The notes beneath the pieces were generated by a model. That model had not been told where the DNA came from. It did not search any database and saw only the letters and a list, made by a program, of their open reading frames with translations. From positions 1 to 25,164 of IMG/VR virus record IMGVR_UViG_3300031951_001120: a DNA stretch of 25,164 nt. The stretch is one strand, 5' to 3'. Made by a program: the position numbers and the translations under genes. Source of the stretch: a virus. Its lineage: Duplodnaviria > Caudoviricetes. Within the stretch, counting starts at the first letter, position 1, and every line of letters starts with the position of its first letter. Positions 1-11,300 of this stretch are shown here, piece after piece.

Positions 1-65
1 TTCATTACGTACATTGTAACTTCAAAGCCAAAACGCATTTCTGTTGCAGCTGGTTTAGTCCACAT
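1..65 (-). CDS. pqqA: PQQ (pyrroloquinoline quinone) precursor peptide PqqA, 3' end cut by window edge
   Basis: Manual translation from ATG at 65 gives MWTKPAATEMRFGFEVTMYVM(N/K..). It has the PqqA N-terminal W-x-K-P pattern and the core R-x-G-F-E-V-T-M-Y with the E-x3-Y pair. Strong SD AAAGGAG at 73-79. Not in the ORF track because it is short. Confidence 0.96.
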   Translation of the reverse strand, partial: MWTKPAATEMRFGFEVTMYVM

Positions 66-96
66 AGCGGTTCTCCTTTCTTTAGTATATATAAAT

Positions 97-125
97 ATTA
101 TACTACAGAATAAGAAATCTGTCAT
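97..125 (-). promoter_or_regulatory. sigma70-type promoter for pqqA
   Basis: On the minus strand, ATGACA (125-120), a 17-nt spacer and TATAAT (102-97) lie just upstream of the pqqA RBS. Confidence 0.75.
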
Positions 126-158
126 GTGTGTAACACTTAACATAGACTAAGGATTATC

Positions 159-851
159 ATTAGTAAATTTATACAACATACTTCATGTCCTAAATGTGGA
201 TCACGGGATAATCTTGCTGAGTATGATGACCATGTATGGTGCTTTGGTTGTAAGTATTACAAGACTAAAGATGATGTACATACATTACGAAGCAGATTGC
301 AGAGAACTCCTTCGATGCCATCTGATGAGTTTACTCTTGAGTTATCTAACGATATACCACTAAAAGCTAAGCAATGGTTACTTAAATATGGTATTACTAA
401 CCAAGAGATCGAGCAAAATAATATTGCGTATAACGCAAATTCTGATATACTTGTTTTGCTTCACACGCAAAATTACTGGCAAGGTAGATGCTTTGGTAAT
501 CAATCTCAAAAGTATTTATCTAAAGGTTTGAAACCATTGACAATTTATGGTAATGGTGATACAATTGTATGTGTGGAAGATATTTTATCTGCTATTAAGA
601 TAGCTAGACTTTCACCAGATTACTGTGCAACACCACTACTTGGCAGTAGTATGTCTCTAGAAACTACACAATCGCTCTCAAAACGATTTAAATCTATACT
701 GATATGGTTGGATAGGGACAAGGCTAAAGATGCGATTATGATGTCAAGAAATTTGAAACAGAGGGGTATTTTAGTTGATGTAGTTATCTCACCTAAAGAT
801 CCTAAAGAATATGACAAAGGAGAATTACTCACTTGGTTGAAGAACAGATAA
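159..851 (+). CDS. DNA primase (N-terminal Cys4 zinc finger plus TOPRIM), probable ATT start
   Basis: The frame of track ORF 297..851 is open back to a stop at 138-140 and encodes SKFIQHTSCPKCGSRDN...HVWCFGC, a T7 gp4-type Zn finger. TOPRIM motifs VCVEDILSA and IWLDRD are present. SD TAAGGA at 148-153 precedes ATT at 159. Confidence 0.88.
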   Translation: MSKFIQHTSCPKCGSRDNLAEYDDHVWCFGCKYYKTKDDVHTLRSRLQRTPSMPSDEFTLELSNDIPLKAKQWLLKYGITNQEIEQNNIAYNANSDILVLLHTQNYWQGRCFGNQSQKYLSKGLKPLTIYGNGDTIVCVEDILSAIKIARLSPDYCATPLLGSSMSLETTQSLSKRFKSILIWLDRDKAKDAIMMSRNLKQRGILVDVVISPKDPKEYDKGELLTWLKNR

Positions 852-2074
852 TAAATTTATTCTGTAAAGACAGAGATCTCTTTACAAAGTATTACAAGTA
901 TGTTAATATTAATTATATTAAAGTTAATTATAGTAATATATATAAATTATTTATAGTAATAGAGTATTACTATACTAAATATAATAATAATAATAATATA
1001 ACTAAACAAGAATTAGAGTTAGCTTATAACTCTAACTATTTACTTAAGGACTCTGAAAGAAAAGAACTATCCGATCTGTTAGATCGTGTCTTAAACGCTG
1101 AACTACCTAACCCTGATGCAGTCATTACTCTTTTAGAAGAGCATCGTCGTCGCTGTCTTGCAGGAGACTTAGCTCGACTTGCATTAGATGTTGAGGATGG
1201 TAAGTCAGATGTTAAAGACTTAATGGATAAGTTTACTGAGTTTGAACATCAAGAGGTTGAATCAGATGAACCAACTTCTATTGAATTAAACTTAGCTAAC
1301 TTACATCAATCCCAGGTTGCAACACCTGGTCTTAGATGGAGATTAGATTTTCTTAACAAAAGTCTTGGGTCATTACGCAAAGGTGACTTTGGATTTGTAT
1401 TTGCTAGACCTGAAACAGGTAAGACTACATTCTTAGCTAGTGAAATATCCAAGATGTTAGAACAAACTGAAGGAGATATTATTTGGTTTAACAACGAGGA
1501 ACAAGGAAACAAAGTCGCTATTCGGTGTTACCAAGCTGTACTTGGGGTAACAGCCGAACAGCTCTTTAATGACATTGAAAGAAATCAAGCACTGTTTGAA
1601 ACTAAAACAGGTAGTAGGTTAAAGATATATGACTTTGAAGATTCATCAAGGGCTTCACGCATTGATGCTATTCTTAAAGAATCTAACCCTGCATTAATTA
1701 TCTTTGACCAGATTGATAAGATCAAAGGATTTAAACATGATCGTAATGATCTTGAATTAAAACAAATTTACCAATGGGCTCGAGAGATTGCTAAGACATA
1801 TGCACCAGTGATTGCTATATGTCAAGCATCTGGAGAAGCTGAAGGTAAACTATGGTTAACCATGGATATGGTTGACAGCAGTAAAACTGCAAAGCAAGGG
1901 GAAGCTGATTGGATTCTAGGTATAGGTAAGGAACAAGATAACACTAGTCGTTATAGATATTTAAATATCACAAAGAATAAACTACTAGGTGACTCAGATA
2001 CTTTACCTGAACTTAGACATGGATCAACTCAAGTATTAATTAAACCTGAGATAGCAAGGTATGAAGATCTCTAA
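833..2074 (+). CDS. Replicative DNA helicase, DnaB/T7 gp4-like (SF4)
   Basis: Walker A ARPETGKTT, Walker B IIFDQID, plus NEE, CQA and ADWILGIG motifs. TTG start with AAAGGAG upstream; follows the primase. Confidence 0.9.
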   Translation: MVEEQIINLFCKDRDLFTKYYKYVNINYIKVNYSNIYKLFIVIEYYYTKYNNNNNITKQELELAYNSNYLLKDSERKELSDLLDRVLNAELPNPDAVITLLEEHRRRCLAGDLARLALDVEDGKSDVKDLMDKFTEFEHQEVESDEPTSIELNLANLHQSQVATPGLRWRLDFLNKSLGSLRKGDFGFVFARPETGKTTFLASEISKMLEQTEGDIIWFNNEEQGNKVAIRCYQAVLGVTAEQLFNDIERNQALFETKTGSRLKIYDFEDSSRASRIDAILKESNPALIIFDQIDKIKGFKHDRNDLELKQIYQWAREIAKTYAPVIAICQASGEAEGKLWLTMDMVDSSKTAKQGEADWILGIGKEQDNTSRYRYLNITKNKLLGDSDTLPELRHGSTQVLIKPEIARYEDL

Positions 2075-2213: not shown

Positions 2214-2375
2214 ATGAAGATTATTAACGCAACAGTTGAAGATATTTTACAATTTGATAACAGTATTTCTGTATCAGATGCAGAAGATCTCTTGCTTTTT
2301 GCTGATCCGCATGATACAATAGAAGAAGCAATAGATAAACTTTATGGAGAACCTCGCGGGGAATGCGCTATTTAA
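2214..2375 (+). CDS. Small acidic hypothetical protein (53 aa, MKIINATVEDILQFD...)
   Basis: Manual translation; strong SD TAAGGAG at 2202-2208; overlaps the polymerase start. Confidence 0.7.
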   Translation: MKIINATVEDILQFDNSISVSDAEDLLLFADPHDTIEEAIDKLYGEPRGECAI

Positions 2376-3517
2376 CTCTAGATGTAGAGACAACAATATC
2401 TAACAAAGGTAATCCCTTTGATAGAACTAATAAACTTTGTTATGTAGGAACAACACATGGACTCTATGATATTGAATATTCTGATACTCCGTATCGGGAT
2501 TCGTTGGGTGAAATTCAAAATCAAATTAAAGCTGCTGAGACTCTCGTTGGTTTCAACATTAAATTCGATTTACATTGGCTTAAAAGGTACCAAATAAACT
2601 TTGATAACAAACGGATATGGGACTGTCAACTAGTACATTTTATTCTTACTGGTCAGACTGAAACTTATCCTAGTCTTAACAAAGTGTGTGCTTATTACAA
2701 CTTAGAATCTAAACTAGATGTAGTGTCTGAAGAGTATTGGAAAAATAAAATAGATACTCCTGATATACCTGAAGAGATTCTTAAAGAGTACTTAGCACAA
2801 GACATCAAGTTAACAGAGCAAGTGTATCTTAAACAACTTGAACAATTAGAAACTGTACCACATTTAAAGAGACTCGTTAGTTTACACAATCAAGACTTAT
2901 TAGTCTTACAAGAGATGGAGTATAACGGTATCTTATACAATGTACCTAAGAGTATAGAAGAAGGAGATAAGTTAGAAAATGAACTTGACAAGATTGATGA
3001 ATGGCTTTATGCACACCATAATTGCCCTGAGTTTAATCCCAATAGTACTGATCACCTTAGTGCTTTCCTATATGGTGGGACTATCATCCTTAAACGGAGA
3101 GTGGCTGTTGGGACATTTAAGACTGGCACTAGAGCAGGTCAACCTAAAGAACGTTGGGAAGAGTATCCAGTAAACTTTCAAAGACTTGTTAATCCTTTGA
3201 AGGGATCTGAGTTAGCTAAAGAAGGACTATACTCTACAGATGAGAATACTCTTAGATCATTACGAGGTAGTAAGAAAGCTAAAGAAATTATTGAAACTCT
3301 TTTGTTTAGATCTACTCTTGAAAAAAGACTCTCAACTTATTACAGAGGTTTAGTTACTTTAATTAAAGACTCTAACTGGGATAATGGTATGATATACGGA
3401 CAACTCAATCAATGTGTTGCAAGAACAGGTAGACTGTCGTCTAGTAAACCTAACTTACAAAACTTTGATGGAGAAATTAAAGACTTATTTGGGAGTAGAT
3501 ATGCTACTGCAAGCTGA
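2363..3517 (+). CDS. DNA polymerase family A, N-terminal part (3'-5' exonuclease plus thumb/start of palm)
   Basis: ExoI LDVET, ExoII GFNIKFDL, ExoIII YLAQD, and PolA motifs FNPNS and TGRLSSSKPNLQN. Ends just before motif A. Confidence 0.92.
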   Translation: MRYLTLDVETTISNKGNPFDRTNKLCYVGTTHGLYDIEYSDTPYRDSLGEIQNQIKAAETLVGFNIKFDLHWLKRYQINFDNKRIWDCQLVHFILTGQTETYPSLNKVCAYYNLESKLDVVSEEYWKNKIDTPDIPEEILKEYLAQDIKLTEQVYLKQLEQLETVPHLKRLVSLHNQDLLVLQEMEYNGILYNVPKSIEEGDKLENELDKIDEWLYAHHNCPEFNPNSTDHLSAFLYGGTIILKRRVAVGTFKTGTRAGQPKERWEEYPVNFQRLVNPLKGSELAKEGLYSTDENTLRSLRGSKKAKEIIETLLFRSTLEKRLSTYYRGLVTLIKDSNWDNGMIYGQLNQCVARTGRLSSSKPNLQNFDGEIKDLFGSRYATAS

Positions 3518-4226
3518 CGCCAAACAACTAGAATGGGTTGGTGCTACATATCTTTCTCAAGATCAAGTCGCTTTAAAGGAGATCTGGGAAAGTGTTGACC
3601 AGCATAGTGATAATCAGAATCGTTTCGGCTTACCTTCTAGACTTGTTGCTAAGACATTCGTATTTCGTCTTATATATGGTGGTTCTGCTTATAGTTATGC
3701 TAATGATCCTAACTTTAGAGATATAGGTAATGAGAAGTTCTGGCAAGGTATTATAGATCAGTTCTATGATAAGTATAAAGGTCTTAAAGCCTGGCATGAT
3801 AAGATACTTAACGATGCTAAACGTGAGGGTAAACTAGTTATGCCTACTGGTAGGACTTATTACTATGCACCTGAACTAAAGTATAATAGAGCTGAATGGC
3901 CACGCACCAAGATCCTTAACTATCCAGTGCAAGGACTTGGAGCGGACCTTATGGCTATTGCAAGAGTAAGTTTAAGAAATAGACTAAAAGAAAAGGAAGG
4001 AGTAAAACTTGTTAATACTGTACATGATTCAATAATACTTGACTTTAATCCTAATATATGGGATAATATAAGTATAGTCAATTTAGTTGACAAATGTTTT
4101 AACGATATACCAGCAAACTTTAATAAATTGTTTGGTAAAGACTTCAACTTACCTATGAGAGTTGAATGTCAAATTGGCCCCACATGGGGAAATATGGAGA
4201 TTATACATGCAAATTACAGTAACTAG
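3501..4226 (+). CDS. DNA polymerase family A, C-terminal catalytic part
   Basis: Likely start ATG 3501 with GGAG at 3492-3495. Motif A LLQADAKQLE, motif B RLVAKTFVFRLIYG, NYPVQGLGAD and motif C TVHDS. Confidence 0.92.
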   Translation: MLLQADAKQLEWVGATYLSQDQVALKEIWESVDQHSDNQNRFGLPSRLVAKTFVFRLIYGGSAYSYANDPNFRDIGNEKFWQGIIDQFYDKYKGLKAWHDKILNDAKREGKLVMPTGRTYYYAPELKYNRAEWPRTKILNYPVQGLGADLMAIARVSLRNRLKEKEGVKLVNTVHDSIILDFNPNIWDNISIVNLVDKCFNDIPANFNKLFGKDFNLPMRVECQIGPTWGNMEIIHANYSN

Positions 4227-10388: not shown

Positions 10389-10513
10389 TGATTGATTTTG
10401 AAATGATTGGTGGATTAAGTCTAGGGTTTGAGTTTATAGCTGATGAGTTCTTTAACTACTTACTCATAGACTTGCTTGTAGTACGATTACAATTCTCCAT
10501 AGAGAAACAATGA
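10385..10513 (+). CDS. Small hydrophobic hypothetical protein (42 aa, MMIDFEMIGGLSLGFEF...)
   Basis: Manual translation; ATGA overlaps at both ends, with nrdJ and with the SLOG gene. Confidence 0.65.
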   Translation: MMIDFEMIGGLSLGFEFIADEFFNYLLIDLLVVRLQFSIEKQ

Positions 10514-10884
10514 AGATCTGTATTCTAGGTAGTAGAAGTATAGACAAAGCAGAAACTGTCATACCTATTATTGACAAGTTTATGAAAGATCACGTCTCTG
10601 GCTCTCCCATTATTTTATCAGGGGGAGCTAAGGGTGTGGATCAGATAACTAAAGCTTATGCTAAAGCCAATGCTATCCCTCTTATAGAGTTCTTACCCTA
10701 TCATCTACTAGATAATAATGTAGAGTTTAGTAGTAAGTATTTCTTTATTAGGAATAAACAGATGATTGATAATGCAGATAAAGTACTAGTCTTTTGGGAT
10801 GGTAAGAGTAAAGGTACCGAGTATGGTATCAAGTACTCTCAAAAGAAAGGTATACCAGTTATGGTATTGAAAGTCCCTATTTAA
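10510..10884 (+). CDS. SLOG family protein (DUF2493/YspA-like)
   Basis: MKICILGSR, ILSGGAKGVD, IRNKQMIDNAD and FWDGKSKGT motifs. Confidence 0.85.
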   Translation: MKICILGSRSIDKAETVIPIIDKFMKDHVSGSPIILSGGAKGVDQITKAYAKANAIPLIEFLPYHLLDNNVEFSSKYFFIRNKQMIDNADKVLVFWDGKSKGTEYGIKYSQKKGIPVMVLKVPI

Positions 10885-10897
10885 TAGTAGGGACCTT
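10870..10897. terminator. Hairpin straddling the two convergent stop codons; candidate bidirectional terminator
   Basis: AAAGTCCCTA - 8 nt loop - TAGGGACCTT; the loop contains the shared TTAA stop overlap (10881-10884). U-tracts are short. Confidence 0.55.
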
Positions 10898-11300
10898 CTA
10901 ACTCTTTACCAATAACTCTAGCTTTGCCAGAGTCAATTGCTTCTCTAGCCATTTGAACAATCTCTTCTTTTGATTTAGCTTTCTTTCCTATCTCTCTTCC
11001 TATAGCATCATTATAATAATCCATTTCTTTCTCAGCTTTGTTCTGATTGAAAGTAATGTTCTCATTAAGAAATGATATAGTCTTAGCACCAACATCAGTG
11101 TAGTCTTGTTCTGCTAGAGCAGAGAATATGATATGACGCATAGCATCTGATTTACCATTATGCTGTGTTTCTTTACCATAAGCAGCATTAGCGGTGTTTG
11201 TAGCTATAGCCTTATTATCAGACATACCAGTAGCCTCTACTACAGCTCCTTTAGCAGCCTGAAATACCTTACTTAAAGCTTCGTCAAATTCAAAGTTCAT
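10881..11300 (-). CDS. Hypothetical protein, DUF6973-like
   Basis: HNGKSDAMRH...SA...EMDYYNDAIGREIG pattern recognised from memory; ATGA-coupled to the upstream ejection protein gene. Confidence 0.65.
   Translation of the reverse strand: MNFEFDEALSKVFQAAKGAVVEATGMSDNKAIATNTANAAYGKETQHNGKSDAMRHIIFSALAEQDYTDVGAKTISFLNENITFNQNKAEKEMDYYNDAIGREIGKKAKSKEEIVQMAREAIDSGKARVIGKELEGPYY

Follow-up and report, generated by a model that had tools for sequence, protein, structure and literature searches.

A host-type pqqA cassette divergent from the primase gene of a phage likely infecting Methylophilaceae

What is a gene for PqqA, the peptide precursor of the cofactor PQQ, doing beside the primase gene of a phage, and does it belong to the phage at all? 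In bacterial PQQ synthesis, PqqD/PqqE join a Glu and a Tyr residue of the peptide and PqqB/PqqC complete the cofactor, one peptide being spent per cofactor. The window, that is the whole stretch of DNA analyzed here, is a complete contig of 25,164 bases (IMG/VR record IMGVR_UViG_3300031951_001120). At its left end a minus-strand ORF (1..65) starts with an ATG at position 65, reads MWTKPAATEMRFGFEVTMYVM plus two bases (21 full codons and 2 bases) and then runs off position 1. The initial annotation took this ORF for PqqA, and both family profiles bear this out. The window peptide matched PF08042 with 42.8 bits (E 4.7e-11, cut-off 21.1) and TIGR02107 with 39.3 bits (E 4.1e-10, cut-off 20), that is above the curated cut-offs and far above chance. 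PHROGs contains no family for the PqqA peptide. The E-x3-Y core consists of Glu15 (23..21) and Tyr19 (11..9). The contig end cuts the gene 7 nt short of the 72-nt length seen in relatives, and those relatives were used for the stop codon and the left-hand sequence.

Relatives were collected by a primase search of IMG/VR, which gave 37 loci, 22 of them with primases at least 71% identical and 15 at 47–66%. A complete pqqA of 23 codons and a stop was located upstream of the primase gene, and divergent from it, in 19 of the 22 close relatives; the sequences of the remaining three begin at the primase. All 19 copies end in ...VMNK and the stop codon; a missing stop, named at first as a refuting case, was not seen in these relatives. 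Glu15 and Tyr19 are kept in 19/19, both residues being demanded by the search pattern itself. Phage genes flank pqqA on the right in the window, on the left in relatives L005 and L007, and it lies in the interior of record G009. In L007, which has a short leader like that of the window, the genes to the left are a zinc-ribbon ORF followed by an ATP-grasp protein, a glutamine amidotransferase and an amidoligase. L005 has the same leftward genes and is part of G009 (44,369 bases, rated 100% complete). The case in which host chromosome or a chimeric join lies left of position 1 is thereby removed as far as relatives can remove it. No pqqB–E genes were found beside pqqA, whose neighbors are the primase gene and, in relatives, the zinc-ribbon ORF. 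A pqqB/pqqE motif occurred in 0 of 157 viral pqqA loci, in agreement with the stand-alone cassette originally described.

The amidoligase, glutamine amidotransferase and ATP-grasp genes are located in the early region (L007 747–3996, L005 777–4020, plus strand). An amidoligase and a glutamine amidotransferase are noted as auxiliary metabolic genes (AMGs) of the MEP401/402 lineage in the report on those phages (PMC10580990). A tie between pqqA and these genes was considered and rejected: pqqA is far away from them in other members of the lineage, and in MW202697, which has genes of this kind, no pqqA was found.

Among 15 distinct pqqA coding sequences, pS was 0.341 and pN 0.030 (pN/pS 0.087), and 13 of the 17 variable bases were at third positions. 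pqqA is maintained by purifying selection in the relatives. Since pN was 0 over codons 8–21, at a pS of 0.34, selection acts on the peptide.

The plus strand of the window encodes a primase, a DnaB-like helicase, DNA polymerase A (two ORFs), nucleases and a ribonucleotide reductase, and the minus strand encodes internal virion, tail and capsid proteins, so that the genes form two opposed blocks. The primase gene (159..851; phrog_47, E 5e-24; zinc-finger cysteines in frame from 159) is the first replication gene and is divergent from pqqA. The gap of 93 nt first given between the two is correct provided that the primase starts at the ATT at 159–161. Methylophilales phages MEP401 and MEP402, which are Zobellviridae infecting an OM43 strain (PMC10580990), were the closest named phages (helicase 64%, capsid 76–78%). 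Replication and capsid modules of the MEP401 type, opposed blocks and a split polymerase are all present in the window; this placement uses the top named helicase and capsid matches and the layout. MEP401 and MEP402 also carry an unannotated pqqA, but theirs lies at the distal end of the late genes, is another allele and lacks the box described below. In the window the polymerase is split over 2363–3517 and 3501–4226 (plus strand), and likewise in L005 and in MEP401/402 (PMC10580990). Because of this kinship and of its pqqA allele, the phage likely infects Methylophilaceae.

The allele was compared with those of bacteria. A pattern derived from the window peptide, which by design favors Methylophilaceae-type alleles, matched 122 GTDB stretches; Methylophilaceae or Methylophilales appear in 69 of the 80 listed titles, nine titles give higher ranks only and two are from one Acidovorax-labeled MAG. 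The 21 residues of the window PqqA are identical to a common host allele, and its coding sequence, compared with three host copies, has 2 differences in 63 bases. In 11 of the 19 relatives the full peptide is identical to that of 29 of 130 host matches. The host assignment made in the initial annotation, together with the allele type it named, is supported by these allele matches as well as by the kinship to MEP401/402. Three host genomes contained 3, 5 and 4 copies of pqqA, and hosts are reported to carry 3–12 copies against one enzyme cluster (PMC4109929). pqqB was within the fetched flank at only 14 of 80 host pqqA loci, so a stand-alone cassette is the host's own design. Orphan host copies and the phage cassette are thus alike in the shared 21-residue allele, the spacing from box to −10 and the stand-alone layout. 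They differ in two ways. Host copies mostly end in a hairpin and a T run (among 40 listed), whereas in the close phage relatives the hairpin is long, imperfect and lacks a T run, or is missing; and the phage box, unlike that of host copies, doubles as the ribosome-binding site (RBS) and start of the primase gene.

The expression signals were examined on an alignment of the window and 11 relatives (12 rows), in which the spacer between the hexamers varies. The Shine-Dalgarno sequence AAAGGAG was confirmed at 79..73 (minus strand), 7 nt upstream of the ATG, with AAGGA in 12/12 rows. The proposed promoter ATGACA-N17-TATAAT is present at 125..97 with 11 of 12 matches, and it is conserved: the −10 hexamer TATAAT (97..102) is invariant in 12/12 rows and so is the GAC of the −35-like hexamer ATGACA (120..125), 17 nt before it. 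Taken alone, however, such a promoter is at chance level, as a consensus scan of window positions 1–1200 found 6 sites against 7.0 ± 2.7 in shuffles. The scan was therefore dropped as standalone evidence and used only with conservation. The predicted transcription start is near position 90.

The span of 1–125 marked at first turned out to be too short, since it leaves out an operator-like box at 163..134. The motif was found in 119 host upstream regions as a 17-bp palindrome with a second half-site, and its matrix was trained on hosts only. In the window, the 17-bp palindromic box CTAATGATAATCCTTAG (147..163, minus strand) matches this motif upstream of Methylophilaceae pqqA, and a second, weaker half-site is at 134..142 (minus strand; host-matrix score 5.0, reached by 0.6% of window positions). 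On the 50-column host matrix the window box scored 30.7, against a host median of 29.4. On 36 columns it was the best site in the window, 27.3 compared with 7.2 for the runner-up. A 17-column score of at least 12 was reached in the upstream regions of 111/123 hosts, 19/19 relatives, 5/7 annotated phages and 39/117 other viral loci; in the controls it was reached in 0/74 and 0/68 downstream stretches, 1/17 relatives and 2/1,230 host shuffles. The 17-mer scores at pqqA of MEP401 and MEP402, which have no box, were −4.4 and 2.2. Box and −10 are separated by 61 nt in the window, in 19/19 relatives and in 71 of 109 scored hosts, where this is the commonest spacing. Box, −35, −10 and Shine-Dalgarno sequence are arranged with host spacing.

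The center of the box is about 65 nt before the predicted transcription start. Because of this position near −65, the host's own pqqA regulator likely activates the phage promoter through this candidate box. A pattern scan of three host genomes gave 16 loci; all five scoring at least 29 precede pqqA (two of them belong to the training set), and the next-best locus (15.0) precedes pqqB. No regulator gene consistently adjoining pqqA was seen at the host loci. The layout of the box resembles that of LysR-type sites and its core a Fur box. It departs from the T-N11-A rule for LysR sites, and neither assignment is claimed. In a host genome of 1.3 Mb (G011), a pqqB operon without a leading pqqA yet keeps a weaker box (L302 1501–1517, plus strand), and three pqqA copies are elsewhere in that genome.

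The box covers the RBS of the primase gene (AAGGA, 149–153) and its probable ATT start (159–161; together 149..161, plus strand). No in-frame ATG, GTG or TTG precedes position 297 in the window primase, and the codon aligned to 159–161 is ATT in 9, ATG in 8 and TTG in 2 of the 19 relatives. The ATT at 159–161 is most likely the start. Could the box be a mere look-alike of a Shine-Dalgarno sequence plus start codon? Other sites in the window scored at most 12.0, compared with 22.2, and the primase RBS regions of seven cassette-free relatives scored at most 8.7, so the match is more than such a look-alike. A further idea, in which the ATT start would be dictated by the box, was also rejected, as the host column is A at 0.51 and C at 0.48 and relatives starting with ATG retain the box. 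Part of the conservation of the box may serve primase translation, because the box overlaps the RBS and start. A box over the RBS of a divergent neighbor was observed also in L008, Venkman and MW202481 (near L040 2010–2026, L041 2901–2917 and L008 4756–4772). This recurring overlap suggests a way of fitting the cassette into a compact genome.

Two hairpins were found in relatives. L001–L008 have a 52-nt imperfect hairpin directly after the pqqA stop (L005 4706–4757, minus strand), without a T run. It covaries: over seven sequences, 97.8% of the cells in 20 pairs are paired and six pairs changed on both sides. This hairpin, which lies outside the window and is absent from L010, L018 and L020, may act as an RNase III site or as a 3′ stabilizer. 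Differing hairpins of like shape follow pqqA in L013–L017 and in L019/L021, and a pattern related to the 3′ hairpin occurs near the start of L005 and L007–L009. The other hairpin is at the predicted start of the pqqA mRNA; the five relatives folded gave z from −1.7 to −3.6 (L003 287–331, minus strand), and between relatives there is a G-C to C-G swap as well as G-U pairs. Most relatives have it. It is missing at window 66–92, and the leaders of the window and L007 are 18 nt shorter. Rfam searches of the window, L005, L013 and L019 gave 0 matches, so neither hairpin is a curated family.

How widely is pqqA carried by phages? A tblastn search against 50,697 phage records gave 12 pqqA matches. 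Nine are Methylophilales or Methylophilaceae isolate records (Venkman, P19250A, MEP301, MEP401, MEP402 and four Melnitz records), a bare count and not a proportion of Methylophilaceae phages. The others are one uncultured phage and two contigs labeled Acinetobacter phage. One of these two was checked (L315 419–4742, labeled Acinetobacter phage MD-2021a); it is a bacterial pqqABCDE operon and probably host DNA. The isolates with pqqA span sipho-, podo- and T4-like phages. Seven records were opened out of the 10 matches other than those labeled Acinetobacter, and none annotates pqqA, so that the gene is indeed overlooked, as first suspected; in two of the seven a hypothetical ORF is called on the strand opposite pqqA. 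In IMG/VR the core pattern matched at least 120 viral stretches, and about 2,200 are estimated.

Within the lineage the position of pqqA changes. The fetched flanks of the 15 distant loci (primase 47–66%) contained no pqqA, four of them having fewer than 240 bases upstream; among the ten listed, with primase identities up to 56–58%, the site is empty. Whole records were searched for 8 of these 15; pqqA turned up at another place in four, all of them among the five records with a completeness of at least 90%. In three it follows the ribonucleotide reductase gene and in one it is near the record end. Across the lineage pqqA recurs at different sites: before the primase gene, after the ribonucleotide reductase gene and toward the end of the late genes. 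It was not found in G002 (97% complete, whole-record search) nor in two complete Manatee Spring relatives, where the search gave no match in any record. In the primase tree 3 of 19 inner branches are well supported, and no order of gains is claimed.

Viral PqqA itself is not new, contrary to what the initial annotation implied. It was published in 2020 as an AMG of Methylophilaceae phages, in the T4-like Lake Baikal population VP_266 with a predicted Methylophilaceae host (Coutinho et al. 2020, PMC7678222). VP_266 and the window are alike in phage-encoded PqqA, in the predicted host family and in the proposed boost of methanol oxidation. They differ in that the window comes from a Zobellviridae-type podophage of about 44 kb, in which pqqA stands alone and the scanned proteins include no methanol dehydrogenase. 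A selection analysis, a promoter and a box are not given in the parts of the VP_266 report that concern PqqA (PMC7678222). pqqA also appears in a list of virus-encoded genes (PMC13188868), and in the relevant part of another paper PqqA is mentioned only as co-expressed with defense systems in hosts (PMC11118758). By term search, pqqA is absent from the main texts on MEP301 (PMC8024684) and Venkman (PMC8163748). The string pqq occurs 0 times in the main text on MEP401/402 (Yang et al. 2023, PMC10580990), and that on Melnitz (PMC9004378) has no pqqA and names PQQ once, as a medium additive (1 nM). The open-access literature yielded no paper describing the box or the occurrence of pqqA among cultured Methylophilaceae phages. 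With viral PqqA already in print the surprise is capped; it has been known since 2020, and the host-type box is a testable addition.

The classical AMG is psbA of cyanophages. Like AMGs of the psbA type, pqqA is a host gene whose product, a component of energy metabolism, is consumed or turns over fast, and it is retained by phages that share a host group without being related. It differs in that phage PqqA, by its predicted function, would be a substrate for host enzymes and not an enzyme or a subunit. Judging from the sequence comparisons, we consider it probable that phage pqqA is an AMG under the control of the host-type box, which adds precursor for PQQ synthesis by the host. A host DNA-binding protein, the regulator of host pqqA, would recognize the box and activate the promoter, and host RNA polymerase would transcribe the gene as a short mRNA during infection. 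Host PqqD/PqqE would then cross-link Glu and Tyr of the phage peptide, and PqqB/PqqC would finish PQQ. The precursor may well be the dosage-sensitive part of PQQ synthesis, because hosts keep 3–12 copies of pqqA per one enzyme set, in which case about 165 bp would suffice for the phage to add flux. More holo-methanol dehydrogenase would give energy, and carbon from the ribulose-monophosphate cycle, for phage DNA synthesis. Several points speak against this reading. Hosts already carry several copies, and the gain from a single extra one may be slight unless transcription in the host declines or the phage reaches a higher copy number. pqqA is not universal in the lineage, not having been found in G002 or the two Manatee Spring relatives. 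The box may be conserved in part for primase translation, MEP401/402 have pqqA but no box, and the 5′ hairpin of most relatives is missing from the window. In engineered strains higher expression of pqq genes is reported to give only limited gains in PQQ yield (PMC9851590). A broader proposal is put forward more tentatively, as one that we doubt somewhat more than we believe: pqqA would be near-core in Methylophilaceae phages, with repeated acquisition in podo-, sipho- and T4-like types, and the captured operator that doubles as primase RBS and start would place it in the host PQQ regulon, to be switched on by a methanol-sensing regulator of the host.

Other explanations would keep the peptide and change the benefit, or give up the peptide altogether. 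PQQ has antioxidant activity, and the peptide might feed PQQ synthesis with the gain lying in a redox buffer, in another quinoprotein or in release at lysis. The scanned proteins of the window and 29 scanned proteins of the complete relative G009 include no methanol dehydrogenase, and the conservation of pqqA fits any use of PQQ. We nevertheless regard this as unlikely: in the isolate collection pqqA is confined to Methylophilaceae phages, phages of other PQQ-making hosts being unmatched apart from the Acinetobacter-labeled contigs, and Baikal relatives are reported with methanol dehydrogenase as well (PMC7678222). A somewhat smaller chance is given to a regulatory or decoy cassette, in which multiplying phage DNA would soak up the host regulator at the box, antisense transcription would adjust the primase and early operon, or surplus peptide would tie up PqqD/PqqE. 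Such a role would suit a box placed on the primase RBS and start, a pqqA pointing against the early operon, the boxes over a divergent gene's RBS in L008, Venkman and MW202481, and the covarying hairpin directly after the stop in L001–L008. It is hard to reconcile with a pN of 0 over codons 8–21 at a pS of 0.34 with Glu and Tyr intact, and with pqqA at unrelated sites, box-free in MEP401/402.

Small and numerous host cassettes could also be gained often by recombination and then lost, which would make pqqA a neutral passenger. The many orphan host copies, the difference of 2/63 bases from three of them and the complete relatives without pqqA are what such a passenger would leave. Purifying selection on pqqA largely refutes this reading, however, and it is very improbable given one fixed site across primases 71–89% identical, synonymous divergence, 0/19 broken copies and the presence of pqqA in sipho-, podo- and T4-like isolates. 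As the contig end cuts pqqA, host DNA fused to it by misassembly, or a prophage edge, was considered too. We give this hardly any credence: 19 independent contigs share the junction, L007 with the same short leader continues into phage early genes, and pqqA lies inside G009.

If the AMG reading, which we prefer, is true, the phage boosts a central energy pathway of its host with a consumable peptide, not an enzyme, for about 165 bases. In lakes and along coasts, Methylophilaceae are abundant consumers of one-carbon compounds. Since cultured phage–host pairs (Venkman, Melnitz, MEP301, MEP401/402 and P19250A) have an unannotated pqqA, the idea is testable at once. With about 2,200 estimated matches in IMG/VR, pqqA may serve as a host marker, and the box is a handle on an uncharacterized regulator of PQQ synthesis.

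Two further regions of the window are recorded here. Positions 845–1030, at the start of the helicase gene, are very AT-rich, with an AAT run coding for asparagines, and are a possible replication origin. At the junction of the opposed blocks (10510–11300) there are a SLOG-family gene (PF10686) and a DUF6973 gene, and pqqA of the distant clade sits at the gene-block junction that matches this region.
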